DNA of 48,839 nucleotides from Candidatus Fraserbacteria bacterium (GCA_037443265.1 JBBIOR010000001.1:1-48839), one strand, 5' to 3'; shown: positions 1 through 45,520, numbered from the stretch's first letter. Made by a program: numbers and translations. Notes: a model not told the origin generated them from the sequence alone.

Positions 1-1571
1 CGAGGCCCAAGCTGCAGATTGTCAGGCCTACTCCAGAGCGGAAAGAGGTGCAGCCAGTAGTGAAGCAGGGCAGCGAACTGAAACCAACATTCCAATACTG
101 TCCATACCAATATTATGGCAGGCTCGCCCCATTTAAGGAAGTGATGTGCCAAAGCTACTGGCACATCTGGCACCGCAAGGTATGGCAAACAGGCAAGATC
201 CATGACAATGTGCTTCAACTCTACAATAATGCCATCACGAAGGGCGCAGACTATGGCATCGTCTACACCTACGAGAAGAAACGTGACATGAGGCTTATGT
301 TGGCAGGATTTAAACAGATGAGTTCATCTCAACTAAAAGAGATGTTGGACGTCTATGCTGGCCTATCAAGCACCACGATTAGTAATGCTGACCTCCTTGG
401 GGGTATAAAGAGTGCTCTAGCTCCTTGTGTAATCCAGGCTTTTGACGATCTGACACAACTACTTACCACCACGGATTTCAGCGACAAGGTTTGGATCTGG
501 AGGGAAAGTTGTTCGATCTTCAATCAAATGGTTCGGGAATTCGAAGAACATCTCGGAGATCGTACCCTAGGAGTCCTCAAGGAATTAATCTCTCAAATCG
601 GTTCACTAGACAGTGAAAGAAAGATTGTTCTATGGGCACTTCTCATAGATCGTCAATACGAGTTAATTACAGAAATTCGCTCTTTGGTGAGCATCATAGC
701 GTCCAAAATTCTGGCACTAGGCATTCAGGATGTCGACCCTTTCAGAACACCGCCCGAACTGCTAGCGGCCACTACGATTATCGTTGCCGAACAAGTCCTC
801 TTTGCTATTATGTCCTGTCAGGAATGTGATCGAATGGCGGTGCTGACCCACTATCGTAATCGACTTAGGGAAGTGGCAGCAGTACCACCAGATCCTAGGA
901 TTTTTGGACTTGCTTTCAATGGCTTGCGTCATGAACTTACCTCAGTAGTGCAATTAAATTTATACGGATGGGATTTAATTGATTATTCCAAACCTGTATC
1001 CACGAGTATCGGTCGTACCGAGATCGATATTATCGCTACCAAAAACGTCCCTGGAGTTGGGAAAGTGGCTTCCTTCGTCGAAGTAAAGGCAGGCAGCTTG
1101 TTTCTTATCGGAATGCCCGATGCCCAAGCTGCGGCGAATCAGCTTACACGATACCTCAATTATGTCTTACAGGTGCAGCAGTATTGTGCCTTAGGGAACG
1201 CCTGCGAGGTGGGGGCAGATATGCGTGTAGTAGCCTTTATCTTCCATGGTATAAGCATTTCAAACACTGCTGAGTGGCTAGCTAATACCGCTGCAAGCGT
1301 TAGCTCAGGAATTCCAGTAATCGTAATCTACTGCATCTCCAATTGTGGAACTGCCAATGCAAGGTATGCAATAGCTCATAATCCACATGTCTCTGTTACG
1401 CAAGCCCAAGCAATCTGTGCAGCCATGGGCTACTGTATCACACCTGCCTTACCACCTCCTTTGAATGCTGTGGTTGTAGATCCTGTGCCACCTCTAAAGA
1501 GTCCACCGAGCTTGTGTCGCAGGCAACCATGCCTTGAGATTCAAGGTATAGGAACACTACAAGATCAGTAG
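1..1571 (+). CDS. Hypothetical protein A1 (5'-partial). Frame is open to the window start and the listed GTG at 48 is probably internal. Paralog of the 2892..4340 product: Pro-rich region, then a conserved Cys/aromatic-rich domain (KPTFQYCPYQYYG...).
   Basis: Six-frame ORF; clear paralogy to ORF 2892..4340 (KPxFxYCPYxYYG...C.W..W.K.W...VVY..KR..L.AGFK..SS.QL..MLD; also GNxC..GA..VV.F.F...IPVIV near the C-terminus). No stop upstream in frame. AT-rich codon usage (~45% GC) unlike the rest of the window. Confidence 0.55.
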   Translation, partial: RPKLQIVRPTPERKEVQPVVKQGSELKPTFQYCPYQYYGRLAPFKEVMCQSYWHIWHRKVWQTGKIHDNVLQLYNNAITKGADYGIVYTYEKKRDMRLMLAGFKQMSSSQLKEMLDVYAGLSSTTISNADLLGGIKSALAPCVIQAFDDLTQLLTTTDFSDKVWIWRESCSIFNQMVREFEEHLGDRTLGVLKELISQIGSLDSERKIVLWALLIDRQYELITEIRSLVSIIASKILALGIQDVDPFRTPPELLAATTIIVAEQVLFAIMSCQECDRMAVLTHYRNRLREVAAVPPDPRIFGLAFNGLRHELTSVVQLNLYGWDLIDYSKPVSTSIGRTEIDIIATKNVPGVGKVASFVEVKAGSLFLIGMPDAQAAANQLTRYLNYVLQVQQYCALGNACEVGADMRVVAFIFHGISISNTAEWLANTAASVSSGIPVIVIYCISNCGTANARYAIAHNPHVSVTQAQAICAAMGYCITPALPPPLNAVVVDPVPPLKSPPSLCRRQPCLEIQGIGTLQDQ

Positions 1572-1592
1572 TCATGAAGCACTGAACGAGCA

Positions 1593-2861
1593 ATGATAAG
1601 GCAAATCATTATAGTGTTGCTTGTGCTCCCCCTTGGTTGGGCAGTCACAGTAAACCATTTCGGCTATGATACTACTCAGTTTGTTGTAGAAGGGGGATCT
1701 ATGATTCTGAAGGTTCCACAGGACTATCCCACAATTCAAGAAGCTATTGAAGCAGCTCCGGCCGGCAGCACAATTGTAGTAGCTCCCGGTACTTACCGTG
1801 AGAACCTGACCATCTATAAATCTTTGACGCTCAAGGGGTTTGAGGCCAGATTGCAAGCCAAGGAGTCTCAACCAGCCGTCCGCTTTCAGAATGCAGATGA
1901 GGTCTCCATGGAAGACTTCCTGATTCGTCCCCAAGAAGATCCGCCCGGAAGAGGTATTCCCTTGCACCCACCATCCGAACCTTCAATGGGCATTCTCATC
2001 ACGGGAGATACGCGCGCCTTCCTAAAATGGAATTATCTCCAGGATTGGACCATAGGGGTCCAGGTTGAGTCGGGGGCTTCAGCCCTGCTGGTGGAGAACA
2101 GTATATGGACAAATGCAGTCAATGCCAAGGGACTTGTCATACAAGAAGCGGAGGCTACCCTGCAAACCAATAGGCTCTATATCGAATCGTCTCTAGAGTT
2201 TGTAGAAGGGATATACGCTTACAAAAGCCATCTGCGGGCGATTGAGAATCAGATCTTCATCTTGTTAGGTGCACGAGAGGTGGCTTCCGCTCTTTTCTTA
2301 GTCGACTCTGAGGCTGAGGTTTTGCGAAACATCTTCGTGGCTCAAAGATCAAATGGGGTCACTATCCAAGGCGCCGGGCACCTCACGATTGATGGGAACT
2401 ACATATCCACAGATTCTGTAGGAGTAAGCCTGTTAGGATCACAATACTTCGGATCCAATGGATGTGCTGTGATGATTAGGGCGAATTACCTCTATGGACT
2501 GCCGGGAGCGGGAGCTGGCTTTAGTATCCAAAACTTCCAAGCAGTAGATATTGCAGAGAACATGATCAACGGTTATCGAGTGGGTGTTTTTTGGGGCTCA
2601 GAAGGTCGCGGGCTAATGAAGCGAAATCTTATCGTCGGTAATCATGAGGACGGCGTGCTGATCGAACGCAGTGCCTTCAGAGTGCTACTGGAGGAGAATC
2701 GAATCCTGAGCAATGAGGGATGCGGCGTGCGGATTGCGGATGCACTGCAAAACAACTTGGAAGCCATAGAAGGAGAAGGGAACTGGATTGAGGGAAATCA
2801 ACAGGGAGACCTTTGTCCACTCGATTTCCCCTGGCCAGCTGGTTTTATTAAGAAGCCCTAA
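1593..2861 (+). CDS. Secreted right-handed parallel beta-helix repeat protein B1 (NosD/pectin-lyase-fold-like) with an N-terminal signal peptide.
   Basis: N-terminal hydrophobic signal (MIRQIIIVLLVLPLGWAV). Motif DYPTIQEAIEAAPAGSTIVVAPGTYRENLTIYKSLTLKG, typical of NosD/PbH1 beta-helix starts. Repeated NxIxxN/G turns. C-terminal GDLCPLDFPWPAGFIKKP shared with ORF 4563..5627. Confidence 0.6.
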   Translation: MIRQIIIVLLVLPLGWAVTVNHFGYDTTQFVVEGGSMILKVPQDYPTIQEAIEAAPAGSTIVVAPGTYRENLTIYKSLTLKGFEARLQAKESQPAVRFQNADEVSMEDFLIRPQEDPPGRGIPLHPPSEPSMGILITGDTRAFLKWNYLQDWTIGVQVESGASALLVENSIWTNAVNAKGLVIQEAEATLQTNRLYIESSLEFVEGIYAYKSHLRAIENQIFILLGAREVASALFLVDSEAEVLRNIFVAQRSNGVTIQGAGHLTIDGNYISTDSVGVSLLGSQYFGSNGCAVMIRANYLYGLPGAGAGFSIQNFQAVDIAENMINGYRVGVFWGSEGRGLMKRNLIVGNHEDGVLIERSAFRVLLEENRILSNEGCGVRIADALQNNLEAIEGEGNWIEGNQQGDLCPLDFPWPAGFIKKP

Positions 2862-2891
2862 GCGCAGGAGCTGGACTTCTCCCAGGCCCAG

Positions 2892-4340
2892 GTGGTCATT
2901 CTCGAGGCGGAGCAAGAGGAAGCCACGGCGCTGGTGGTGGTGCCCGAGGCAGCAGCCGGAGGCCAGGGGCTCTTGAGGGGAGGCTTCGGCTTCGATCTGG
3001 ATCGGGCGGTGTACACGGCCGTGAAGGTGCAGCGGGTCAGTGGGGGAGGAAGTCGGGCGAGCTGGCAGATTCTGCCTGAGCCTGTGCCGCAGCTGCCGGT
3101 GGTGGTACCGAAGCCCAGGCCGGGGGTGGGTCCGCCGAGGTTGCCGGCGCCCAAGCCAGTGCCACCGAGTCCGCCGCCTGCGCCGCCTGCTCCTGTGGTC
3201 AAGCCGGGCACAGCGCTGAAGCCGGTGTTTGAGTACTGCCCCTATGGGTACTATGGTGGGCCGGTGCCGGCCTTGAGCAAGGGCCTCTGCCAGGAATCTT
3301 GGGCCCAGTGGTACAAAAAGCAGTGGAATAATAGGCTGGTTCATGGGCAAATTTTACGAGCTACGAATACCATCGCTCAGCAGTCTTACAATGTTGTCTA
3401 TGCCTGGGATCGGAAGAGAGGGATCGATCTCATTGCCGCAGGCTTCAAAGGTCTAAGCTCAACACAGCTTCAGACGATGTTGGACCTTGCTGCCGCGAAG
3501 GTTCAAGAAGCCCAGCCGCAACTACCTCCCGAGATTTTACAACGATGGGAGCAAGCTAGCTCCTTGATCAACACGATCACACCTGCTGAGTTTGGGGGTT
3601 GGTTCGACGCTTTGAGTCAGGCCATTGAGCAAGGGCGATTTGACGAAGAGTACAGCCGCTTGCTGTCCCAAGGGCTCGAGCGATTACAGAACGCCCTGTT
3701 AATTCTCATGAATTCACAGGATACGCGAAGGGCCAAGGAGCTTCTCCGTAAAGCGGCGCAGGTCTGGGCACGACTTGCACAGGTCTCGCCGGAAGTTGGC
3801 GAAGCAATCAAAGAGCGCATGCGGGATGTGCGACTTCGCTTGGAGAGCAATTTCTTGCTCCTTATAGCTGCCTGTGACCTTGTACCAGGCGTCTGTACCA
3901 TTCTTCAAATCGAAGGCTTGGGAACAGTCGTCGTAGCAGGCAACTCGGTCGGGCAAGGTGGATGGGTATATAAGGGCCTCAGATTAGATCGAGATGGCTC
4001 TTACACCCAACAAGGTCTCGGGGACTGGTGGGGAGCGGTCTTACTCTTGCCTAAGGAGAAAAACCCTATGGGGCGCAGCATCGTCGCTGTTTCACGTGGA
4101 GACCATTGCGTCGACTGCGGGGCCAAGGCGGACGAAATCTCCACCTGGGTGAAAAGAGCTGTGGAACTCGCACCCTCCGTTCAAAAAGATAACGGAGGAG
4201 ATCTAGGCGTAGTGACTTTCGCCTTCACCAACCCCAATGCTAACGTAGCCTCAGTCTTGCAACGCCTAAGACAAGATCATCAGGATAGCCAGGTCCCTGT
4301 CATCGTTGCTTTGGATGGAGAATGGTCGAGTTCGGTATGA
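2892..4340 (+). CDS. Hypothetical protein A2, paralog of A1. The N-terminal Pro-rich low-complexity linker is followed by the conserved Cys/aromatic-rich domain. The exact start is uncertain.
   Basis: ORF; ~45% identity to A1 over the ~100-aa conserved domain (ALKPVFEYCPYGYYG...), weaker similarity through the rest. GC-rich Pro tract at ~3075-3210. Confidence 0.55.
   Translation: MVILEAEQEEATALVVVPEAAAGGQGLLRGGFGFDLDRAVYTAVKVQRVSGGGSRASWQILPEPVPQLPVVVPKPRPGVGPPRLPAPKPVPPSPPPAPPAPVVKPGTALKPVFEYCPYGYYGGPVPALSKGLCQESWAQWYKKQWNNRLVHGQILRATNTIAQQSYNVVYAWDRKRGIDLIAAGFKGLSSTQLQTMLDLAAAKVQEAQPQLPPEILQRWEQASSLINTITPAEFGGWFDALSQAIEQGRFDEEYSRLLSQGLERLQNALLILMNSQDTRRAKELLRKAAQVWARLAQVSPEVGEAIKERMRDVRLRLESNFLLLIAACDLVPGVCTILQIEGLGTVVVAGNSVGQGGWVYKGLRLDRDGSYTQQGLGDWWGAVLLLPKEKNPMGRSIVAVSRGDHCVDCGAKADEISTWVKRAVELAPSVQKDNGGDLGVVTFAFTNPNANVASVLQRLRQDHQDSQVPVIVALDGEWSSSV
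3075..3210 (+). repeat. Pro-rich low-complexity coding tract (PKPRPGVGPPRLPAPKPVPPSPPPAPPAPVVKP) inside A2.
   Basis: Read directly: runs of CCG/CCC/CCA codons. Antisense ORFs 2685..3350 and 2858..3211 are artefacts of this tract. Confidence 0.6.
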
Positions 4341-4562
4341 ATGCATCAGCCAAGGGTGTTCCAACCTCAGCTGGCAAGAACAGGAACGAATTGCCTGCAA
4401 CCAGCTGGGCCTAGCTGCCGGCTGTGCCGGTCCTCCATCTCAGGTGTCCGCCACCAATCCTCTACCAGCCGGCACGCCTCACCTCCCCCTCCTGATCCTA
4501 GTAGCTTTTGCCAGGGACGGATCTGTATCATTTGACAAGCTCCAGGACGCCAAGACTGGAGG

Positions 4563-5627
4563 ATGGATCATATGAGGGAAATGCTAGGGATGGTAACGAT
4601 TCTAGCTGCCACGCTGGTTGCAGTTAGCGGAGCTTCACTGAAATGGCAGGGGAGTGTGCTGTCGCAAGTTGCCTTCATCATCGAAGTGAGCTGCCCAGAT
4701 CCAGAGGGGTGCTGCTCCCTTCTGGCTAAGGCCATAGAGCAGGCTCCCGCAGGAGCTACCCTGCGGCTTGCTCCAGGCACTTACTATGAAAAACCCCTCA
4801 CCATCGAGAAGAGCCTCAGATTAGAGGGAGCCCCATCAGAGAGTGCCCGCAGCCCCCGCATTGTCCTTGTACAGGTGGGCACGGCCCTCCGGATCCGGGC
4901 AGGCAGCCCAATGACCGTGGAGCTTGAGCGCGTGTCCATTGAAGCCCTCGCTCAAGATCCCTTCAGTGGTGAAGAGAGCGTAGCTCTGGAGGTGTTTATT
5001 AAGACATCGAGTAATGTACAGGTTACACTGAAGGAGGTCGGTATCCGGAGCCATCAAGGGATCATGATTGGGGGCGATCAACCAGGGGCACTGGTCGTGG
5101 AGGTTATTGATACGAACATTCTTGCTGGCAGAGGAGGGATCGGTATGAACTTGGGGCGGCTGATCCTGCAGGGGAGCACCTTGCGCGGCCCTAACTCTGT
5201 CCTCGCTGCCTTGTCAACTCCCTTTCACGGGGTCTTTCTACAACCCATCCCTTCCGGACGGGTTGAGGCTGTTTTAACCAAGAACCTCATCGAAGGCTTT
5301 AGCGTTGGCCTGTGGGCAACTGCCAGCAGCCACTTGGGGCAGGGGAGGGTAGACCTTCAAGGGGTAGAAAACGTGATCGCCTCCAATCGCCAAGATGGTC
5401 TTTATCTCCTAGGGGATCGAGTCGATGCCGAGCTAAACCGAAATGATATTCGCGAGAACGGTGGCTATGGAATCCGGTTAGCTCTACCCGATTGCACAAG
5501 CGTGCCACGTGAGTTTCGATTCCAAGGAGTTATACGGGGGACTGAGAACGAATTCTTCAACAATAAATCAGGGAATCTTTGTCCACCGGATTACCCCTGG
5601 CCCCCGAACTTCATCAAGAAGCCCTAG
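4563..5627 (+). CDS. Secreted right-handed beta-helix repeat protein B2 (paralog of B1). The true start is probably the ATG at 4572 or 4581, downstream of GGAGG.
   Basis: Signal peptide (MLGMVTILAATLVAVSGASL). Motif LLAKAIEQAPAGATLRLAPGTYYEKPLTIEKSLRLEG. C-terminal GNLCPPDYPWPPNFIKKP identical in pattern to B1. Confidence 0.6.
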   Translation: MDHMREMLGMVTILAATLVAVSGASLKWQGSVLSQVAFIIEVSCPDPEGCCSLLAKAIEQAPAGATLRLAPGTYYEKPLTIEKSLRLEGAPSESARSPRIVLVQVGTALRIRAGSPMTVELERVSIEALAQDPFSGEESVALEVFIKTSSNVQVTLKEVGIRSHQGIMIGGDQPGALVVEVIDTNILAGRGGIGMNLGRLILQGSTLRGPNSVLAALSTPFHGVFLQPIPSGRVEAVLTKNLIEGFSVGLWATASSHLGQGRVDLQGVENVIASNRQDGLYLLGDRVDAELNRNDIRENGGYGIRLALPDCTSVPREFRFQGVIRGTENEFFNNKSGNLCPPDYPWPPNFIKKP

Positions 5628-5885
5628 ATGAAAACGCTGCTGGGTTCTGCCCTGGGTGTCTTGGCCTTGCTCGCTCCCAGCGCGCTAGCCGCTCCCAGCC
5701 TCTCCTTAAGCGGGATCTTCCTGGGCGAGCCCGATATCTTCGTCCCCGGCCTGGGAGTGAGCGTCAAGTTCCCCTTCACCCGCTCCCTGAATGGACTTGC
5801 GGGTGCAGCTCTTTTTCTGTCCGGCAGCTGGAATCTCAAGACGGGCGTCGCTTGGCCGCTCTCCTCCTGCTGCTCTTCGACGTGA
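5628..5885 (+). CDS. Small secreted protein with signal peptide and alternating beta-strand pattern. Probably the N-terminal part of a frameshifted ~135-aa beta-barrel-like protein that continues in another frame to 6040.
   Basis: Start overlaps the B2 stop (TAGATG). Signal MKTLLGSALGVLALLAPSALA. Downstream frame 5885..6040 encodes ...LSLPLSRSWAFFNELSLNVPLAARFLQPEFAVGFSLSF, ending in an OMP-like aromatic C-terminal strand. Confidence 0.4.
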   Translation: MKTLLGSALGVLALLAPSALAAPSLSLSGIFLGEPDIFVPGLGVSVKFPFTRSLNGLAGAALFLSGSWNLKTGVAWPLSSCCSST

Positions 5886-6040
5886 TTGACGACTTGGTGC
5901 CCCAGCTGGGAGCGGGAGTGCGCTTGAGTCTTCCGCTCTCTCGTTCGTGGGCGTTCTTCAACGAGCTGAGCCTGAATGTGCCTCTCGCGGCCCGCTTCCT
6001 CCAGCCGGAATTCGCTGTAGGATTCTCGCTCTCCTTCTGA
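5885..6040 (+). pseudogene. Out-of-frame continuation (C-terminal beta-strand region ending ...GFSLSF) of the small secreted protein. Frame switch is near the CTCCTCCTGCTGCTCTTC tract at ~5860-5877.
   Basis: Frame-2 translation downstream of the frame-0 stop at 5883-5885 gives amphipathic beta-strand-like sequence with a terminal Phe. Upstream of ~5850 the same frame reads as non-protein-like. Confidence 0.3.
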
Positions 6041-11741: not shown

Positions 11742-12446
11742 CTAGCGGATTTCCACGCGGCCCTCCTCTTCATCGAGCCACACTCGGCCCTGGGCGATGA
11801 GCCCAAGGGCCCTCTGATAGGCCGGGCCGTCGCAGGCCCATTTCATCTGCTCTTGATGCTCCTCGGCTGAGATGCCCTCCCTCACTTCCAAAGGCTCACT
11901 CATGACGACAATGGGGCCGGCATCGACCCCTTCTGTGACGAGATGGATGGTCGATCTCGTGTGTCTTTCTCCCGCCCGGATCGCCTGGGCCACCGCATCT
12001 TGCCCGACATACTTCCGCTGACCCTGCTCATCCACAATCGAAAGATCCCCAGGATGGACGTTCAAGATGCGATGGCGATACGCACTCAGCAGCGGCTCCG
12101 TAATGATGAGCATAAAACCCGAGAGCATCAAAATATCCGGCTGCCACGGGGCGATTCGCTCTATCACTTGGGCGAAATACTCATGCCGCGCCTTTTCATC
12201 TTTAGGGGTAGCTCTGCGCCGAGCGAGAAACTCGCGAAAATCCAAGACCTCCAGCGGAATGCCCGCCCGTCTTACCTGGGCGATGCCCGGAGCCGTCGCA
12301 CGATCCGTAAAGGCCCCCACAAATTCATACTTCACGTGGAGATTGGGATCGTTCTGCAAAAGATACTGGAGCGCGCTGGCCCCGCCGGAGAAGAGTACCG
12401 CTACGCGCATGAGCCGACCCGGCTTGGGTTCGTAAATACATCTCAT
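11742..12446 (-). CDS. purN: Phosphoribosylglycinamide formyltransferase (PurN-like).
   Basis: Formyl-transferase N-domain: RVAVLFSGGAS, NVHPGDLS, GVDAGPIV (Asn/His/Asp catalytic pattern). 4-nt overlap (ATGA) with upstream purD. Confidence 0.7.
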   Translation of the reverse strand: MRCIYEPKPGRLMRVAVLFSGGASALQYLLQNDPNLHVKYEFVGAFTDRATAPGIAQVRRAGIPLEVLDFREFLARRRATPKDEKARHEYFAQVIERIAPWQPDILMLSGFMLIITEPLLSAYRHRILNVHPGDLSIVDEQGQRKYVGQDAVAQAIRAGERHTRSTIHLVTEGVDAGPIVVMSEPLEVREGISAEEHQEQMKWACDGPAYQRALGLIAQGRVWLDEEEGRVEIR

Positions 12447-13735
12447 GGCGCAAGGGCTTTGGCCGCGATATCTCGTCGATAATGCATGCCTTTAAAATGA
12501 ATCTTCGAGACGGCTTGATAGGCCCGCTCTCGGGCCGCGGCCACGTCCGGTCCTAGGGCTGTCACTCCCAAGATGCGCCCGCCCTTGGTGAAGAATCTCC
12601 CATCGCGCATCTCCGTGCCCGCATGATAGACGATCACATCCCCCAGCGCCTCGGCCTCCTCGATGCCAAAGATCTCTTCATTCTGATGATCGTATCTTTC
12701 GGGATACCCGGCCACGGAGAGCACGACACAGACGGCTGCCCCCTCCTTCCACTTAAGAGTCGCCTTAGAGAGCCCCCCTTCCGTACACGCCCGCAGGATG
12801 GGATAAAGATCGCTCTTTAAGAGCGGAAGGATCGCTTGGGCTTCTGGATCTCCGAAACGGACGTTGTATTCGAGCACATGCGGCTTGCCTTTGGGATCGA
12901 TCATGAGGCCACAATAGAGCAGGCCCGAGTCCGAGAGGCGCTCCTCCTCCATGCCCAACAGCGTGGGCAGTATGATCTCTTGCTCGATTCTCTCATAGAC
13001 GGCCTCGCTGACCAGAGGAGCAGGCGCGTAGGCTCCCATCCCGCCGGTGTTCGGACCTTGGTCGCCGTCATAGAGGGTCTTGTGATCCTGGGCAGGCGGA
13101 AGGGTGGCCACAGATTTCCCATCGGTGAAGGCGAAGATAGAAGCCTCCTCGCCTGGGATGCGTTCTTCAATCACTACTCGCTGTCCTACGCCGCAGCGCT
13201 TCTCTTTCAGTAGGGCGACGAGGGCCTTCTGCGCCGATTCAAGATCTGGAGCTCTGATGGCCCCCTTCCCTCCGCAGAGCTCATCGGCCTTGATGAAAAA
13301 GCCCTCGCCGGGGTCTTCTTTGAAGCGCTCTTCCAGATACGCCAACGCCATGCGGTAATGCTCAAAGATGCGAAACGCGGCCGTCGGGATGGAATACTTC
13401 TGCATGAAGCGCTTGGCGAACGCTTTGCTGCCTTCCAGTTGAGCGGCGGTCTTTTTGAAGCCGAAGACTCTAAGATCATGGGCGCGCAAGAAATCCACCA
13501 GTCCTTCCACCAGAGGAGCCTCCGGACCGATGACTATTAAATCAACATCCTCGCGCAGGGCGAAGGCCACCAGATCGTGTCTGTCTTTTAGGGGCACGTT
13601 GGTCGCGCCCTGCAAAGCCGCCGTGCCGCCGTTGCCCGGAACACAGAAGACATGCTCCACATCGACATCATCCACCAGAGCCCGCACGATCGCGTGCTCT
13701 CTGCCGCCGCCACCGATGACGAGGACCTTCGCCAT
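12443..13735 (-). CDS. purD: Phosphoribosylamine--glycine ligase.
   Basis: MAKVLVIGGGGREHAIVRAL N-terminus, ATP-grasp body, ~430 aa. The track ORF extends to 13897, but the ATG at 13735 matches the conserved PurD start. Confidence 0.85.
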   Translation of the reverse strand: MAKVLVIGGGGREHAIVRALVDDVDVEHVFCVPGNGGTAALQGATNVPLKDRHDLVAFALREDVDLIVIGPEAPLVEGLVDFLRAHDLRVFGFKKTAAQLEGSKAFAKRFMQKYSIPTAAFRIFEHYRMALAYLEERFKEDPGEGFFIKADELCGGKGAIRAPDLESAQKALVALLKEKRCGVGQRVVIEERIPGEEASIFAFTDGKSVATLPPAQDHKTLYDGDQGPNTGGMGAYAPAPLVSEAVYERIEQEIILPTLLGMEEERLSDSGLLYCGLMIDPKGKPHVLEYNVRFGDPEAQAILPLLKSDLYPILRACTEGGLSKATLKWKEGAAVCVVLSVAGYPERYDHQNEEIFGIEEAEALGDVIVYHAGTEMRDGRFFTKGGRILGVTALGPDVAAARERAYQAVSKIHFKGMHYRRDIAAKALAP

Positions 13736-13736
13736 G

Positions 13737-15098
13737 CTAAAGCAATTTCTGTGCAAATAGCTGCACTGTCTCTCGCTGCGCTCGAAATAGAGGATTGTGG
13801 CTTGAAAGGATTCGCTCTGCGGCCAGCACGGCGTTTCCTGGCCGCTTGCAGAAGAGCACGGGCACATCACTGGGCATCTGCAAGGTCGAGTGCACATGGA
13901 GGAGATAACTCAGCTCGTCTTTGTACGGCGGACAGGCGATCACGGGGAACTGCGCGTGATGCGCCACAACGCCCGAAAGGGCATCGCTCCCACCAGCCAC
14001 GGTGATGGCCACCACCGGCTCGATGCTTTGATTGAGCATCGCAATCAGATCCAACAACTCCCGCGTGTTCTTATGGGCCGAAGCGACGGCCCGGCCATGA
14101 GGGATCTTGCGCGCCTCAAGCTCTTGCTTGAGCGCTTGCACATGCCAATCATCTTGTTCTGAGCCGGCGATGATCTGCACATACCCGCCCTTAATATAGC
14201 CTCGGCGGATCAGATTGTTGACCACACGCTCCCCAATGGGAGTCCCATCGCGGCGCGTCTGCCACTTCTGGCCCGTCAGCTGCTCGTAAAGCGCGATGTA
14301 GCGTCGACTCGTCTCCCGGATATCGCCAGATGTCAGTTCCGTCTTCTTTACAATATCGCGCACGAATTGTTTCGAGAGCTCGACCATCTCCCGGCCGGGC
14401 TTATAGGCATGAGCGTGCCAGTAGCGAGACGAGTCGGGGGTGTGCACTTCGTCCACGAGGAGGATCTTGCCGTCGTGTTCGCCGAACTCATATTTGGTAT
14501 CAACGAGGATGAGCCCGCGTTCTTGAGCAATTTGCGCGCCTCGCTCGTAGAGCGCCAGAGCTTTCCCAACGAGCGTCTTGTAGAATCTCCCCAGGAGTTC
14601 TTGAGCGGCCTCGGGCGTGAGGGGCTCATCGTGGCCGCTGTGGGCTTTTGTCGTGGGCGTGATGATGGGCTCTTTGAGCTTACAATTCTTGACGAGTCTC
14701 CCGCCTGCAACCCTTTGGGCCGTGATCTTGAAGCCGTATTTCTCTTCAAATTGGCCCGTTTGAAGATCCTCCCACGCCGAGCCTGTAATATAGCCGCGCA
14801 CGACCATCTCAATGGGGAAGACTTTCGCCTGACGGGCCACAATCACGTTGGGGTCGGGCCAATCGATCACATGGTTGGGCACGACATCTTGCGTCTGCTC
14901 AAACCACCACATGGCGATCGCATTGAGCACCGCGCCCTTCTCCGGGATGAGAGCCGGGAGCACGCGATCAAAGGCCGAGATACGATCTGTGGCCACAAGC
15001 ACGCGCTTATCTCCCACGACGTGATTGTCCCGGACTTTCCCGGCATAGAGCGGTCCCAACTCGGGCAGATAGCCGGAAGCCAATACGTCAGATCTCAT
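13737..15098 (-). CDS. Bifunctional SAICAR synthetase / AIR carboxylase (PurC-PurE fusion, PAICS-like). The PurE domain has class-II features.
   Basis: N-terminal part matches long-form SAICAR synthetase (GKVRDNHVVGDKRVLVATDRISAFD). C-terminal ~150 aa is PurE (VQIIAGSEQD...ASAHKNT...ITVAGGSDALSGVVAHHAQFPVIACPP), with SAHK as in eukaryotic/class-II PurE rather than SAHR. Confidence 0.75.
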   Translation of the reverse strand: MRSDVLASGYLPELGPLYAGKVRDNHVVGDKRVLVATDRISAFDRVLPALIPEKGAVLNAIAMWWFEQTQDVVPNHVIDWPDPNVIVARQAKVFPIEMVVRGYITGSAWEDLQTGQFEEKYGFKITAQRVAGGRLVKNCKLKEPIITPTTKAHSGHDEPLTPEAAQELLGRFYKTLVGKALALYERGAQIAQERGLILVDTKYEFGEHDGKILLVDEVHTPDSSRYWHAHAYKPGREMVELSKQFVRDIVKKTELTSGDIRETSRRYIALYEQLTGQKWQTRRDGTPIGERVVNNLIRRGYIKGGYVQIIAGSEQDDWHVQALKQELEARKIPHGRAVASAHKNTRELLDLIAMLNQSIEPVVAITVAGGSDALSGVVAHHAQFPVIACPPYKDELSYLLHVHSTLQMPSDVPVLFCKRPGNAVLAAERILSSHNPLFRAQRETVQLFAQKLL

Positions 15099-18524: not shown

Positions 18525-21500
18525 TTACCCATTGAGTGGTTTCTTCCAGCTTGCCTTTAAGGCTTCTAGATTCTCGTGGATGATCTGCCTGCCTTGCAAG
18601 CCAGTCACACGAAACGTAGGGGCTTCTACCGTCACGCCAATCTTGCTCCAAACGCAATCCTTCATCCGTTGCTCAAAGCGCTTCTGGTGCTCCGGCTTCA
18701 CTTCCACCAGAATCCTGGAGGCCGATTCTGCGAAGAGCAGGAAATCATCGCGTGCGAAGCGCTTTGAGGCGGAGACGCTTCTAAGATCCAGCTCCATTCC
18801 CAATCCGCCGGCGAAGGCCATCTCTGCGGCCGCCACAGCCAGCCCCCCCTCGGAACAATCATGACACGCGCGAATCAGCCCCGCTTTCATCGCTTGATGC
18901 AAGGCCCGATAGCGCTTCTTGGCCCCCTTGGCATCGACTTTGGGAACGCCGTTGCCGATGAAGCGTTCTCCCCGTAACTCCTCTCCCATCATCGCAAAAT
19001 ATTCTGAACCACCCAACTCCGCGCGCGTCTCGCCTAGCATATAAATGAGATTGCCCGGCTCTTTGAGATCCATCGTCACGACTCTTTTGATATCTTCGAT
19101 CACGCCAAGGGCCGAGATCAAGATCGTCGGCGGAACAGAGATTTTCACACGCTGGCCATCGAGTTCTCCCTCGAAATCGTTGTGCATGCTGTCTTTCCCT
19201 GAAATAAACGGGGTGCCAAACGCGATGGCGTATTCATAAAGAGCTTGGCAAGCCCGCACCAGCTGGGCGAGCCGAAATTCATCATCGGGGCTGGACCAGC
19301 AGAAATTGTCGAGCACCGCGATTCTTTCGGGATCGGCCCCCACGGCCACGGCATTGCGAATGGCTTCATCCAGAGCCAACGCCGCCATGTGGTACGTGTC
19401 GATGTCCCCATAGTTGGGATTGATCCCGTTGGCCACCACAACACCTCGCCTTGAACCCTTGCGCTGCATCTCCAGGGGCCAGAGGACGGCCGCGTCACTC
19501 GGACCGTCGTTCCCCACCAAGGGCTTTACAACCGTCTGGCCCTGAACCTCGTGGTCGTACTGACGAATCACGTACTCTTTGCTCGCGATGTTGAGTCGTC
19601 CCAGCATCTTGTGGAGGATCTGGCCCAGATCTTTCGGCTGGGGGAACTGGGGTTCTTCAGGCTGAGGGCGCCTCCAGACGGCCCTCAGCTTCTTTTGAGG
19701 ATGGCCCCGCAGCAGAAACTCAACGTCAAGATAGGCAATCGTTCGGCCCTCATAGAGCACGTGAAATCTCCCGCTATCTGTGAACTCTCCCAACACGGTG
19801 GCTTCCACATCGCGCTCTCGGGCTAATTTTAAAAGATCTTCAAGGCGATCAGGAGAGACGGCCAGCGTCATGCGCTCTTGGGATTCGCTGAGCAGAATCT
19901 CCCAGGGATCAAGGCCGGAGTATTTGAGCGGGGCTCGTTCCAGGTGGAGCTGCGCGCCCCCGCAGAGAAGGGCCAGCTCCGCCACAGAACACGACAGCCC
20001 GCCGGCTCCGTTGTCGTGAATCGCTTTATAAAGCCCTCGATCGCGCGCTTCTAAGAGCATATCCATCATGACTTTCTGGACGAAGGGATTTCCGATCTGC
20101 ACAGCAGAAGTCGGGCTTGCTTCCGTAAGGGCATCAGACGAAAAAGTCGCGCCATGGATGCCGTCTTTGCCAATGCGGCCTCCTACCATCACGATGAGAT
20201 CGCCGGCCTCGATCGTCTTCTCATGGGATGGATGAGAATTCAAGCGGGCCGGCATGATGCCCCCCGTGCCACAAAAGACGAGGGGCTTGCCCAAGAAGCG
20301 CTCATCGAAGCGAAGCGCCCCGTTGACCGTGGGGATGCCGCTCTTATTGCCGCCATGCTCGACTCCCCGGCGCACGCCTTCGAAGACACGCTTGGGGTGC
20401 TTTAAGCCCTTCGGCAGAGGCTTCGAGTAGCAGGGATCGGCAAAGCAGAAGACGTCCGTGTTGAAGAGCAGGCGAGAGCCCAACCCCGTTCCCAAAGGGT
20501 CGCGATTGACGCCTACAATTCCCGTAAGAGCCCCGCCATAAGGGTCAAGCGCGGAGGGTGAGTTATGGGTCTCGACTTTGAAGACCAAATTAAATTCTTC
20601 ATCGAGTTTGATGACTCCTGCATTGTCCTCAAAGACTGAGACGAGCCAGGAGATTTGTTTGGAGATCTCGCGCGTCGCGCCCTCAATGAAAGTCTTAAAG
20701 ACGGAGTCGATGATCTCAGTTTTACCCGTCTCCTCGTCGCGATACTCGATGAGCCCTCGAAAGATCTTGTGTTTGCAGTGCTCGCTCCAGTTCTGGGCCA
20801 AAGCTTCCAACTCGACATCTGTGGGAGAATCCGGCAGGCCCAACGATGCGCGTTCTTCCCGCCGGCTGCGAAAATAAGCGCGAATGGCCCGCATCTCTTC
20901 CAGATTGAGGGCCAAGAGTCGTCTTCGGCTGAGCTCGAGTAGCTCTTCATCAGAGACCTCTAGATCGATCGTCTCCACGCGGGGCTTCCGCTCGAGATGG
21001 ACAGCCGGCACGACGATGGGGATCTCTCCATCCCAGCGCGCTCTCTCGTAGATCGAAAAGCGCTCGATCAGCTCGTTGGCTAAAAGCTCTCGGGCGATGC
21101 GTTCGGCCTGGGCCTTCGTCAACTCTCCCTGGATGAGATACTGTCTGGAGCTGAAGGCCTGTATCTCCCTCTGGAGGAGATCTCTGATGGCTCGCTGGGC
21201 TGTCTGGCCCACGCTGTCGGTGACGCCGGGCTTGTAGCCCACTTCGATGAGCAGATCCCACGGGAGCCGGCGGGCCAGCGGCACGTCCACAGAGTAGAGC
21301 TGAACCACAGGGTCGCAGAATAGCTCCTGGGCTAGGCGCACAAGCTCCGGGCGGGTGAGCTCTCCCTCCAGGGTATAGACAGCTACGGTGCGCACCTGCC
21401 GGATCTTTAGGCCCAAATCCGCAAGAATGCGGACCTGGGTGGCGCGTCCGAGCGCGTCCACATAGACAGGCTTATATGAGACTTCAATGCGATGGGCCAT
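18525..21500 (-). CDS. purL: FGAM synthase II with two N-terminal PurS-like domains fused (PurS-PurS-PurL).
   Basis: Residues 1-~80 and ~85-~165 each resemble PurS (MAHRIEVSYKPVYVDALGRATQV...; LLIEVGYKPGVTDSVGQTAQRAIRDL...). The remainder is small-type PurL with two AIRS-like repeats; 991 aa. Confidence 0.8.
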   Translation of the reverse strand: MAHRIEVSYKPVYVDALGRATQVRILADLGLKIRQVRTVAVYTLEGELTRPELVRLAQELFCDPVVQLYSVDVPLARRLPWDLLIEVGYKPGVTDSVGQTAQRAIRDLLQREIQAFSSRQYLIQGELTKAQAERIARELLANELIERFSIYERARWDGEIPIVVPAVHLERKPRVETIDLEVSDEELLELSRRRLLALNLEEMRAIRAYFRSRREERASLGLPDSPTDVELEALAQNWSEHCKHKIFRGLIEYRDEETGKTEIIDSVFKTFIEGATREISKQISWLVSVFEDNAGVIKLDEEFNLVFKVETHNSPSALDPYGGALTGIVGVNRDPLGTGLGSRLLFNTDVFCFADPCYSKPLPKGLKHPKRVFEGVRRGVEHGGNKSGIPTVNGALRFDERFLGKPLVFCGTGGIMPARLNSHPSHEKTIEAGDLIVMVGGRIGKDGIHGATFSSDALTEASPTSAVQIGNPFVQKVMMDMLLEARDRGLYKAIHDNGAGGLSCSVAELALLCGGAQLHLERAPLKYSGLDPWEILLSESQERMTLAVSPDRLEDLLKLARERDVEATVLGEFTDSGRFHVLYEGRTIAYLDVEFLLRGHPQKKLRAVWRRPQPEEPQFPQPKDLGQILHKMLGRLNIASKEYVIRQYDHEVQGQTVVKPLVGNDGPSDAAVLWPLEMQRKGSRRGVVVANGINPNYGDIDTYHMAALALDEAIRNAVAVGADPERIAVLDNFCWSSPDDEFRLAQLVRACQALYEYAIAFGTPFISGKDSMHNDFEGELDGQRVKISVPPTILISALGVIEDIKRVVTMDLKEPGNLIYMLGETRAELGGSEYFAMMGEELRGERFIGNGVPKVDAKGAKKRYRALHQAMKAGLIRACHDCSEGGLAVAAAEMAFAGGLGMELDLRSVSASKRFARDDFLLFAESASRILVEVKPEHQKRFEQRMKDCVWSKIGVTVEAPTFRVTGLQGRQIIHENLEALKASWKKPLNG

Positions 21501-42431: not shown

Positions 42432-43814
42432 ATGAGGGCGTTATCTAAGCAGCAGCTGGAAAAGCTCCGGGCTCTGTTGGGGCCTGAGAAGATCTCGCAG
42501 AATCCCTCCGATCTGGCCGCTCATGCGCGCGATGAGTCGGCCCACGGCGAGTTCCCTCCCGATGTGATCGTCTACGCCCACTCGACGGAAGACGTCTCCC
42601 AAGTGCTCAGATTCTGCCATGATGAGAAGATTCCCGTGACGCCCTGGGGGGCGGGGACGAGCCTGGAGGGCAATCCCGTGGCCGTCTTGGGCGGCCTCTG
42701 CCTCGACCTATCGAGGATGAATCAGATTCTGAAGATTCAGCCGGAGGATTTCCAAGTGACGGTGCAGCCGGGCGTCGTGCTGCAGGAACTCAACAAGCGC
42801 TTGAGCAAATATGGGCTCTTCTTCCCGCCGGACCCCGGAGCCCCCTGCACCATCGGTGGCATGGTGGCCAACAACGCCGCGGGCATCCAAGCTGTAAAAT
42901 ACGGCCCGACGAAGAACTACGTGCTCAAGCTGGAGGTCGTGCTCGCCAATGGGGATGTGATCACGTGCGGCACGAATGCCTTGCGCACGTCATCCGGCTA
43001 TGATCTGTTACATCTGTTCATCGGCTCCGAGGGGACCCTAGGCGTATTTACGGAGATCACATTGAAACTGGCTGGGCTTCCGCGGGAGGTCTCCGCGGCC
43101 ACGGCCTCTTTCCGTGCGCTTAGGCAGGCCACAGAGACGGTGGTGGAGGTCCTGCAGGCGGGACTTGCGCCTGCGGCCCTGGAACTCATGGACGCCATCA
43201 CCGTGCGAGACATCAACGCCTTCAAAAATCTCTCATGGCCTGAGATGCCTACGCTCTTTTTAGAATTTCGCGGCAACGGGCCGGAGGTGGCGGAAGACGT
43301 CCGCCTGGCTCAAGAGATCTGCCAGGACCACGAGTGCCTTTCGTATCAAATCGCCATGGGACGCCCAGAGCGCGACCGGCTCTGGGAAGCAAGACATCAT
43401 GCGTATTATGCCTCAGCGGCGGCCAATCCCGGCAAGCGCGCGATCGTCACCGACGTGGCGGTTCCCATCAGCAAGTTTCCAGAGATGGTCGAGTTCTCCC
43501 GGCAGAAGCTGGCCGAGCACGGCCTGAGCGGCCCGATTCTGGGCCATGCGGGCGATGGGAATTTTCATGTGGGGATCTTCTACGAGGATACAGCCGCAAG
43601 CAAAGCCAAAGCCCATGCGGTCAACGAAGCCATAGTGTTGCACGCGCTTGAACTGGGCGGCACGGCCACCGGCGAGCACGGCGTGGGAGTGGGCAAGATC
43701 CGCTTTATGAGAGCCGAGCACGGCAAGAGCTATGAATTGATGCGACAGATCAAAAAACTGCTTGATCCCAACGGGATTCTCAATCCGGGCAAGATCTTCG
43801 ATGAGAGAAGCTAG
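42432..43814 (+). CDS. FAD-linked oxidase (GlcD/D-lactate dehydrogenase-like).
   Basis: PCMH-type FAD-binding domain (VTPWGAGTSLEGNPVA), C-terminal FAD-oxidase domain. ATG at 42432 after GGAGG is preferred over the track start at 42363. Confidence 0.8.
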   Translation: MRALSKQQLEKLRALLGPEKISQNPSDLAAHARDESAHGEFPPDVIVYAHSTEDVSQVLRFCHDEKIPVTPWGAGTSLEGNPVAVLGGLCLDLSRMNQILKIQPEDFQVTVQPGVVLQELNKRLSKYGLFFPPDPGAPCTIGGMVANNAAGIQAVKYGPTKNYVLKLEVVLANGDVITCGTNALRTSSGYDLLHLFIGSEGTLGVFTEITLKLAGLPREVSAATASFRALRQATETVVEVLQAGLAPAALELMDAITVRDINAFKNLSWPEMPTLFLEFRGNGPEVAEDVRLAQEICQDHECLSYQIAMGRPERDRLWEARHHAYYASAAANPGKRAIVTDVAVPISKFPEMVEFSRQKLAEHGLSGPILGHAGDGNFHVGIFYEDTAASKAKAHAVNEAIVLHALELGGTATGEHGVGVGKIRFMRAEHGKSYELMRQIKKLLDPNGILNPGKIFDERS

Positions 43815-45307
43815 TTGCGTATCGTCACGGGCACGAGCACCGAAGCACGCACGCCCTTGGCGTCTGTGACACTGGCCCGTAAGAGGTATGTGCCGTTGGG
43901 GAGCTTCGTCGTATCCCACAGGGTGCGGAAGCCGTCTTGGTAGCTGCGATCCACACCGATCTCTACAAAATGCTTCCCATCGCGGGAGTACTCAAAGAGC
44001 GCGAAGCTGAAGCTCTGTAGATCTAAAAATCCCTCGGCCGTCACGCTCAGTTCTATCTGGCCGGAGCAGACGCTCTGGGGGCAGAAGGAGAGCCAGCGGA
44101 CTGTGGCCTCGGTCACGTGGACGATAGGGGGATTGGCCGGCGGATTGGCCGCGGCGGAGAGTTGAGCCTGGAGTTGTCCCAGAGCCTCTTTCGTCCGCTG
44201 ACATTGGCTGGCCCGCAGATGGGCGCGAGGCTGAGGGGTCACGCCGGAGCCCTTCATGAGATTCATGGGATCGCTGATGGTGTCTGCCAAGCCGTCCTCG
44301 CCCGGATGAGCCAGCCCCAGGTTGTGACCCAACTCATGGGCCAACGTCGAGATCATCTGCTTGGGGGTGATGCCCTGGAAGAGGGCACCCCAGCGGATGA
44401 TCACATAATTGGGCCAGCCACTCTCGCTGAATCCTTCGATGTCCCTAAGCTCTCCTTCCCACAAGGTGAGGATCCTTGCGCCGACGACGAGCACGTTGAA
44501 CGCTTGAGCCGCACGCGGCTCCTTCTCCTGAGCGGCCTGCCACAGAGCAAAGGTGGCTTGCCGCAAGAGATTTCCGGCCTCACGGCCGTGGTAGATCATC
44601 AGGCCCCTCTCATCCTGGAGGAAGAGCTTTTCAGCGAGGGTCCCACCGGAGACGGACACGCGCTCGGGCTGGACCACCCAGACGCCCGCTAGAGAGAAGC
44701 CCACGCCGCACTGATCCCAGATGCCCGAAAGCTTGGGTAGAACGTACGCTTGAATCATGGTCAGCACATTGGGACGGGGCTGCCCCAGCAGGCTGCCCTC
44801 TGGAATGGAAGCCCCTTCGGCTAGAGCGGTCTCCCCGTCGTCCAGAATGAAGACGTTCAGCGCGATCTGTTGACCGATGGGGAGAACGCGTTGCTGCTCC
44901 TCATCGAAGTTGTATAGCGGCGGCTGCCCACAGGTGAAGCTAAACGGAACGGACTCGCTTCGCTCGCCCGCCGCATCGAAGAGCGTCACAGCCAGCGTGA
45001 TTTGCTGGTCATACTCAGTGCAGCGGAGCGCGAAGCTCATTTCTCCCTGGGCGGTCGCCCCGGCGCGCACAGGAACGTTCATACGATAATACCGGCCATC
45101 GAGCACATCAAAGCGGGCATAGAGAACATCTTGATCGGGATCTTGATAGCGCAGCTGGCCCATGGCCGTAGCGTTGATCTCAACGTTGGCCGGAAAGCTC
45201 AAATCAGAGATCGTGGGAGGCGCAGCCCAAACGTTGAAGATGAACACAAATGGGATGCTAGCTAAGAAGGTCAGCCACCAGCCGACTCGTCTGAGTCTAG
45301 TCTTCAT
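43811..45307 (-). CDS. Secreted metzincin-type zinc metalloprotease with a C-terminal beta-sandwich domain.
   Basis: Signal/TM N-terminus; HELGHNLGLAH (HExxHxxGxxH) zinc-binding motif with a downstream Met-turn candidate (SDPMNLM). Confidence 0.7.
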   Translation of the reverse strand: MKTRLRRVGWWLTFLASIPFVFIFNVWAAPPTISDLSFPANVEINATAMGQLRYQDPDQDVLYARFDVLDGRYYRMNVPVRAGATAQGEMSFALRCTEYDQQITLAVTLFDAAGERSESVPFSFTCGQPPLYNFDEEQQRVLPIGQQIALNVFILDDGETALAEGASIPEGSLLGQPRPNVLTMIQAYVLPKLSGIWDQCGVGFSLAGVWVVQPERVSVSGGTLAEKLFLQDERGLMIYHGREAGNLLRQATFALWQAAQEKEPRAAQAFNVLVVGARILTLWEGELRDIEGFSESGWPNYVIIRWGALFQGITPKQMISTLAHELGHNLGLAHPGEDGLADTISDPMNLMKGSGVTPQPRAHLRASQCQRTKEALGQLQAQLSAAANPPANPPIVHVTEATVRWLSFCPQSVCSGQIELSVTAEGFLDLQSFSFALFEYSRDGKHFVEIGVDRSYQDGFRTLWDTTKLPNGTYLLRASVTDAKGVRASVLVPVTIRN

Positions 45308-45520
45308 GGTCCTTCGGCAGCCCGGCTGCCCTGGCGCGTATGCGCTGTAGGCCCGCGGCTTTGTGTCCCTCGGATTTCTCCGGGTTTACCCTTATCGGGA
45401 CCGTCTTTCAGCTCCTTTAACTTTTCAGGGTGATTTTACTTTAGCGCACCCCACTGGCCTTGTCAAGTATTCTGGCATACACTCAGGGAGATCTTTCGCC
45501 ATCGTGCTTAGGAGGAGAGC

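Follow-up and report, generated by a model that had tools for sequence, protein, structure and literature searches.

A window of 48,839 nucleotides (nt) from Candidatus Fraserbacteria bacterium (GCA_037443265.1 JBBIOR010000001.1:1-48839) was analysed, and its left end, bases 1-6040, carries five co-directional genes, here called A1, B1, A2, B2 and C (Table 1). The left end of the window coincides with the end of contig CAZXMQ010000003.1 (assembly GCA_964641905.1); A1 is therefore truncated on its 5' side and lacks the N-terminus. In the best explanation, the region forms the downstream end of an array of cassettes, the A-B-C module of which is lineage-restricted and occurs in Bipolaricaulota/Fraseribacteriota-like bacteria. 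The original prediction, made from the sequence, had described two consecutive copies of an A-B gene pair that arose by an old tandem duplication. The four open reading frames (ORFs) concerned are indeed co-directional and paralogous, but the second pair is decayed and leaderless, and an array of recombining cassettes takes the place of the simple duplication.

Table 1. Features of the A-B-C region, in coordinates of the window.
Feature	Position	Strand	Evidence or remark
A1, effector-like gene of the lipoprotein family	3..1571	+	ORF open from base 3, 522 codons visible, 5' end cut by the contig end
A1 conserved N-domain (LKPTFQYCPYQYYG ... MLAGF), also in A2	78..368	+	34% identity to A2, E 5e-24; no Pfam match
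A1 C-terminal PD-(D/E)xK-fold domain, then Cys-rich subdomain	894..1436	+	predicted fold
A1 candidate active-site residues	E311 933-935, D342 1026-1028, E360 1080-1082, K362 1086-1088	+	motif pattern
B1, secreted right-handed beta-helix protein, 422 aa, signal peptide	1593..2861	+	Pfam Beta_helix 1.5e-18, NosD 1.2e-13
B1 C-terminal motif DLCPLDFPWPAGFIKKP	2808-2858	+	common to B proteins
A2, leaderless decayed A cassette	2862..4535 (annotated ORF 2892-4340)	+	homology to intact A genes
B2, intact secreted beta-helix partner, 354 aa	4563..5627	+	homology to B1, E 2e-14
B2 C-terminal motif NLCPPDYPWPPNFIKKP	5574-5624	+	motif of B proteins
C, small secreted protein gene, frame-broken	5628..6040	+	three-frame translation, intact homologues

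The gap between A1 and B1 is 21 nt, that between B1 and A2, at the boundary of the two pairs, is 30 nt, and the annotated A2 ORF is followed by 222 nt ahead of B2. The longest gap had been placed between the pairs; it lies within the second pair and encodes the frameshifted tail of A2, and the true A2-B2 gap is 27 nt once this tail is counted. Gaps of 21-30 nt leave no room for a further immunity gene. Consensus scans of the region gave no convincing intergenic promoters or terminators, and the only DNA repeat detected within the window was the 65-nt 3' end of B, at 72% identity.

The domain common to A1 and A2 comprises 135 amino acids (aa), is rich in Cys and aromatic residues (KPxFxYCPYxYYG...AAGF) and is 34% identical between the two (E 5e-24), as expected from their earlier description as strongly diverged paralogues with a conserved Cys/aromatic-rich domain. 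No match to A was obtained in Pfam, NCBIfam, PADLOC or PDB sequences, which agrees with the view that the A-B architecture falls within no recognised family. A word-based search returned 9 relatives, and a profile search of 1.84 billion representative proteins enlarged the family to about 126 clusters, the hidden Markov model (HMM) of which matched A1 at 4e-156. All of these relatives are unnamed or "hypothetical" in the records, and the sources, where named, are metagenome-assembled genomes (MAGs) of Candidatus Bipolaricaulia, Acetothermia and Fraserbacteria. The homologues, together with the ratio of nonsynonymous to synonymous substitution (dN/dS) of 0.09-0.30 between A2 and its orthologue at the locus L006, also indicate that the A ORFs are coding.

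A lipobox signal (e.g. LLLLGILTGCS) is present in 24 members of the A family, including 23 of the 48 that are at least 640 aa long; examples are P0008, the 819-aa protein of L004 and the 861-aa protein of L006. It is not visible in the window, where A1 is cut off and A2 is leaderless, and the supposed lack of a signal peptide in A was thus an artefact of truncation. Several long members carry PKD or HYDIN/ASH-type immunoglobulin-like (Ig-like) repeats, and a C-x(2-7)-C motif lies within the last 30 residues of 56 of 130 members, mostly after a Pro run. On the basis of the lipobox signals and the C-terminal Cys motif, complete A proteins are considered to be Sec-exported, lipid-anchored and probably disulfide-bonded. 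Their layout runs from the lipobox through a leader region (residues 25-230 in P0008) or Ig-like repeats, a Pro-rich linker, the conserved Cys/aromatic domain and a helical stalk to a PD-(D/E)xK-fold domain, a Cys-rich subdomain and a PPPP...CxxxxC tail. At three loci (L014 5509-7990, L015 2236-4717 and L012 7534-10262) A is split into a short N-terminal ORF of 172 or 145 aa, which is the part with the lipoprotein leader, and a long ORF of 651 or 753 aa. The split is identical in two independent assemblies (L014 and L015); either a frameshift common to both or a gene that really consists of two parts could account for it. A 340-aa ORF at L003 2393-3415 combines hydrophobic, membrane-like N-terminal segments with a duplicate of the C-terminal tail of the upstream A (the TPIVIAWTDEGGNNHVVCIGCNDEF block is identical) and has no B gene after it.

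B1 and B2, both of which have intact reading frames, are related over 36 aa near the N-terminus, the cap motif (61% identity), and over a C-terminal block of 118 aa (34%; E 2e-14 overall), and both end in LCPxD(F/Y)PWPxxFIKKP. The prediction that B is a signal-peptide beta-helix protein held up: B1 scored 67.4 bits against Pfam Beta_helix (PF13229; cut-off 25.9) and 51.4 bits against NosD (cut-off 23.6), and B2, with 17.7 bits against Beta_helix, is under the cut-off but nonetheless homologous to B1. The N-terminal extension of B1, which includes the signal peptide, is covered by the homologue P0012, and the cap motif reads VPxDYPTIQxAI in B1. B2 is 79% identical to the B protein of L006, with a dN/dS of 0.35. 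B resembles the NosD-like/DUF1565 periplasmic right-handed beta-helix proteins in the cap motif and in the scores of B1 above the two Pfam cut-offs. Assignment to NosD itself (TIGR04247) was rejected, because the scores of B1 (67.6 bits) and B2 (25.8 bits) fall short of the cut-off, which is 300, and no nos genes (nosZ/F/Y/L) are nearby; B further differs in its subfamily-specific C-terminal LCPxDYPWPPxFIKKP motif and in its pairing with A. B1 had no significant match among PDB sequences. The N-terminal region of B matched pectinesterase and polygalacturonase models weakly, and a comparison of B with carbohydrate-active families gave no significant match, only the generic Beta_helix and NosD models being hit. 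A prophage or tailspike origin of B was also discarded, since the flanks consist of housekeeping genes and no viral structural matches were found. A related C-terminal motif, GLCPVDREWPENF, occurs in P0021, a 580-aa protein of Kosmotoga sp. that represents a Thermotogota lipoprotein with a beta-helix; judged from this sequence, a second phylum with a toga may also have the C-terminal motif of the B type.

Homology of A2 to other A proteins (AQELDFSQAQVVILEAE) begins directly after the stop codon of B1, and the leaderless gene P0009 of another genome starts at the same point. Relative to intact homologues (P0002 and the 861-aa A of L006), the lipoprotein leader and about 230 N-terminal residues are gone from A2, 291 nt (97 codons) are deleted in frame at about position 3912 in comparison with L006 A, and the frame is broken by an extra T within a T run at about 4305 and by an out-of-frame deletion at about 4480. 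After ...VPVIVA, P0002-like homologues continue with WMEKGRVRYECIG...CQGPICII. The 222-nt stretch downstream of the A2 ORF encodes this tail in two other reading frames, the +1 frame being entered at about 4306 and left again for the first frame at about 4480, and ends in ...CQGRICII at 4535. The truncated 482-aa A2 product is recorded from two contigs, and the dN/dS against the L006 gene points to recent decay.

The array had also been predicted to end in a small secreted, beta-barrel-like gene. C does recur after B elsewhere, but in the window it is frame-broken: a signal-peptide ORF spans 5628-5885, and the C-terminal half lies in the 5579-6040 frame and ends in ...GFSLSF (FFNELSLNVPLAARFLQPEFAVGFSLSF), the disruption being a frame-shifting deletion at about 5850-5865. 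Both halves are spanned by intact homologues, which are about 150 aa long and 50-65% identical to C. The family (P0151-P0176) has no Pfam match; its members have a signal peptide and an aromatic end residue, and the alignment columns average 68% identity. Of the traits of an outer-membrane beta-barrel (signal peptide, amphipathic strands, C-terminal aromatic residue and barrel fold), the homologue alignment shows the signal peptide and a terminal F or L. C directly follows B not only in the window but also in L016 (10001-10450, intact, in the order A-B-C) and, as a decayed copy, in L006; its start codon abuts the B stop codon in the window and in L016, and it closes the L004 array. The truncated C product, like that of A2, is recorded from two contigs. 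Because the truncated products occur on two contigs and most lesions are deletions, real decay is likelier than sequencing error, which was judged improbable for the deletions and the two-contig lesions and possible for the single extra T. In the window, A1-B1 looks functional, A2 and C are decaying and B2 is kept.

Gene neighbourhoods of relatives were checked for the predicted co-conservation of A and B, and an A gene followed by a secreted beta-helix or beta-propeller gene was found at about 12 loci in at least seven assemblies, distant A architectures included. A beta-helix gene follows A in L002, L003 (several pairs), L004, L005 (several pairs), L006, L009, L011, L012, L014/L015 and L016, and a signal-peptide beta-propeller stands in the place of B in the second cassette of L004 and in L010. 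In the arrays of L003, L004, L005 and L010 a lipobox-bearing A comes first and is followed by leaderless A copies (L004 and L010) or by strings of C-terminal fragments (L003 and L005), each with its own B. B is intact beside a decayed A in the window (A2/B2), in L005 and in L013, where a 139-aa A remnant lies ahead of an intact B1 orthologue. All of the arrays run into a contig break. One MAG contains at least four module loci, and a scan of genome contigs returned three loci only, all in one MAG.

The A proteins are mosaic. The N-domain of A1 is nearest to that of P0002/P0005 (44-47% identity), which have A2-type C-termini, and the C-terminus of A1 is nearest to that of P0008 (36%), the N-domain of which is only 29% identical to that of A1; the leader region of A2 resembles P0008/P0009 (52-63%). 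Types of A C-terminus and types of B fall into the same three groups (A1 of the window with L002; A2 of the window with L003b, L005a and L006; L003c with L003d). DNA blocks common to cassettes are 73-84% identical and end abruptly; recent gene conversion between cassettes was considered and rejected in view of this level of identity. The G+C content at third codon positions (GC3) is 0.46 in A1 and 0.46-0.61 across A1, B1, A2 and B2, compared with 0.68-0.78 in the neighbouring housekeeping genes. Overall G+C content is 46-49% in A1-B1 (window 1-2000) and 56-63% in the rest of the window, which suggests that a relative of lower G+C content was the source of the first cassette, by acquisition or by exchange.

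The structure of A1 was predicted with AlphaFold2 from a 131-sequence alignment. The mean predicted local distance difference test score (pLDDT) was 69, with values of 80-95 over residues ~250-480 and 82-94 over the N-domain. In the model, the C-terminal domain adopts the alpha-beta-beta-beta-alpha-beta core of the PD-(D/E)xK superfamily, in which helix 1 bears E311, strand 2 D342 and strand 3 E360-x-K362. The region of this motif coincides with a weak match to Pfam UPF0102 (13.9 bits, cut-off 23.6), which was the best match among curated PD-(D/E)xK families, none of which was reached above threshold; there was no match among PDB sequences, and a Foldseek search with the model gave nothing at E <= 1e-3, the weak matches falling in the same class. 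The catalytic pattern is present in A1, P0070, P0060, P0008 and P0085 and, in a QxK form, in P0028, P0073 and P0095, and D...(E/Q)xK is kept in about 8 of 37 full-length A C-terminal domains. A2-type copies have WWGAVLLL...SIVAVSRGDHC in place of the catalytic motif. A jackhmmer search started from the C-terminus of A1 joined all C-terminal types, including the A2-type P0002 at 1e-32, and the variants are therefore regarded as one divergent fold. Compared with PD-(D/E)xK nucleases such as UPF0102/YraN, XisH and the catalytic domains of type IIS restriction endonucleases, the A domain is distinguished by its extracytoplasmic, lipoprotein-borne setting, its fusion to a Cys-rich subdomain, a sequence similarity under every curated threshold and the loss of the motif in A2-type copies.

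The arrangement was compared with polymorphic toxin systems (CdiA-CT/CdiI, Rhs and MafB; Zhang et al. 2012, PMC3482391), with which it has in common a conserved N-terminal export part joined to a variable C-terminus, a putatively cognate gene directly downstream, N-/C-terminal mosaicism, and a full-length gene followed by leaderless or fragmentary cassettes, each with a partner (L004, L010, L003, L005 and A2-B2 of the window). The secretion element expected at the N-terminus of the full-length protein is represented by the lipobox of the 24 members. TPS, Rhs, LXG and MafB-N domains were not detected in A by Pfam-type searches, and no TPS, FHA-repeat or CdiB-type Pfam domains of two-partner secretion or contact-dependent inhibition (CdiA) were found in A or its long relatives. 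The nuclease-like domain of A is, in the model, structurally similar to CdiA-CT DNases, and the module differs from the known systems in having a secreted beta-helix or beta-propeller partner of 330-460 aa. Among lipoprotein toxins, the C-terminal effector domain of SitA of Myxococcus is often a nuclease, and the SitI immunity proteins are small proteins of the cytoplasm; B, by contrast, is large and secreted. SitA/SitI toxins are delivered by outer-membrane exchange (PMC5562445). By description, A is like them in its lipobox, polymorphism, putative C-terminal effector domain and adjacent, putatively cognate gene.

From these comparisons, A-B is interpreted as a polymorphic exported effector with an immunity-like partner, to which a probability of roughly 0.45 is assigned. 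A would be displayed in the envelope with its C-terminal domain as the effector, a putative nuclease in those A1-type copies that keep E...D...ExK, and B would bind and neutralise, or guard against, the C-terminal domain of its cognate A, either at the cell surface or within the periplasm. A copies that lack a leader, A2 among them, would be silent or orphan cassettes able to recombine onto the leader-bearing gene through the shared AQELDW...VVVPE...CPY region. By analogy, the export part, variable C-terminus, putatively cognate downstream gene, leaderless cassettes, mosaicism, atypical composition and persistence of the downstream gene where the upstream one decays would all match polymorphic effector loci, and the predicted nuclease fold of A1, with its catalytic residues intact, would match a common toxin class. 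The first isolate of the phylum, a diderm, possesses both a toga and an S-layer (bioRxiv 10.1101/2025.11.21.689855), which makes a periplasmic or surface location of A, B and C plausible.

Several results weigh against an effector with an immunity-like partner. All C-terminal types belong to one fold and so lack the exchange of unrelated toxin folds that marks classical polymorphic toxins; the original likening of the divergent A C-terminal halves to polymorphic effectors was apt and has to be refined in this respect. With a plausible catalytic set in about 8 of 37 domains, nuclease activity is not the general function, and immunity in the cytoplasm would be expected for a toxin that is a nuclease, yet B has a signal peptide. 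At the time of the 2012 survey (PMC3482391) no large beta-helix or beta-propeller immunity proteins were known; the survey states that neither beta-propeller nor Ig domains had been encountered among immunity proteins and that secreted ones accompany toxins with an action at the cell surface. The co-variation of A and B rests on three clear groups, for which shared ancestry of whole cassettes may be part of the cause, and a rank-based Mantel test of A C-terminal against B similarity over all pairs was not significant (p = 0.20). Many relatives, finally, have a single A-B pair among housekeeping genes.

Most copies have lost the catalytic residues but retain fold, Cys-rich subdomain and CxxxxC tail. 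This is what an extracellular disulfide-bonded binding module would show, and A and B could instead form a variable cell-surface complex that has no toxin role, although this is somewhat unlikely. A would be a lipid-anchored stalk with a nuclease-fold binding module and B a docked beta-helix, employed in adhesion, self/kin recognition or phage escape, with silent cassettes supplying variation by gene conversion. The export of both proteins, the Ig-like repeats in some A, the constant motifs of A (CPYxYYG) and of B (LCPxDYPWPPxF), and the toga with S-layer of the phylum (bioRxiv 10.1101/2025.11.21.689855) are consistent with such a complex, and mosaicism combined with leaderless cassettes fits pilS- or vls-type variation. 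If the two worked only as a complex, however, B would not be expected to stay intact repeatedly where A has decayed to a fragment; the complete E...D...ExK set retained by a subset of A also argues against it, as does the 73-84% DNA identity of cassette blocks, which gives no sign of ongoing gene conversion.

Scavenging or matrix degradation, by a surface-anchored extracellular nuclease (A) and a glycan-cleaving beta-helix enzyme (B) with paralogues for different substrates, is distinctly less probable. It would draw on the PD-(D/E)xK fold and catalytic residues of the A1 C-terminus, on the single-copy A-B pairs among housekeeping genes, and on the fold of B, which is typical of pectate-lyase or CASH-type carbohydrate enzymes and comes with the weak pectinesterase and polygalacturonase matches; the catalytic residues are nevertheless absent from most A C-terminal domains, B has no significant match to a carbohydrate-active family, a beta-propeller can replace it, and the leaderless cassettes, fragment-plus-B strings, mosaicism and atypical GC3 would go unexplained. 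It is very improbable that no system exists, with A and B adjacent by chance and the frame breaks produced by assembly errors. The source is a metagenome-assembled genome and one of the breaks consists of one additional T within a run of T, but the recurrence of the A-B adjacency largely refutes this explanation, deletions account for the remaining lesions (291 nt in one case, more than 10 nt elsewhere), the same truncated products come from two contigs, and the neighbouring housekeeping ORFs are intact. A wider possibility, put forward tentatively and considered rather doubtful, is that deep-branching bacteria with a toga possess, in A-B(-C), a hitherto unrecognised class of system for conflict or recognition at the envelope, in which a restriction-endonuclease-fold domain on a lipoprotein is specifically matched by a large secreted beta-helix or beta-propeller and diversity arises by recombination with leaderless cassettes. 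The A domain would then be catalytic in some copies and a pure binding module in most, and the two proteins would form an effector/immunity or ligand/receptor pair built from folds that have no such role in any described system.

Two further features were recorded elsewhere in the window. A 991-aa ORF at 18525-21500 on the minus strand encodes a fused PurS-PurL (PurS, FGAR-AT linker and PurL-type AIRS domains) and adjoins other purine-synthesis genes at 11742-15098. A c-di-GMP-I-GGC riboswitch (RF03167) was identified at 45312-45399 on the minus strand (66.3 bits, gathering score 59, E 1.4e-13); directly downstream lies a 498-aa ORF (43811-45307, minus strand) without a Pfam match, the product of which, from its position, would be a protein of unassigned family regulated by cyclic di-GMP (c-di-GMP).

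Taken together, the A-B module is real and uncharacterised and, by analogy with known systems, would best be filed under the polymorphic effector/immunity theme, with unusual folds in both roles and in a lineage that has hardly been studied. We know of no account of competition or mutual recognition in Bipolaricaulota or Fraseribacteriota. Hardly any members of these phyla have been cultured, and the first observation of their toga-like envelope is very recent (bioRxiv 10.1101/2025.11.21.689855). The module is multi-copy, fast-evolving and wholly unannotated. As an effector/immunity system, it would extend the folds of immunity proteins to large secreted beta-helices and beta-propellers and would provide a Sec/lipoprotein route for polymorphic effectors outside Proteobacteria and Myxococcota; as a variable surface complex, it would open a first way into the study of the proteins on the surface of these cells. 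Either reading yields a simple testable hypothesis, namely cognate binding of the A C-terminal domain and B.

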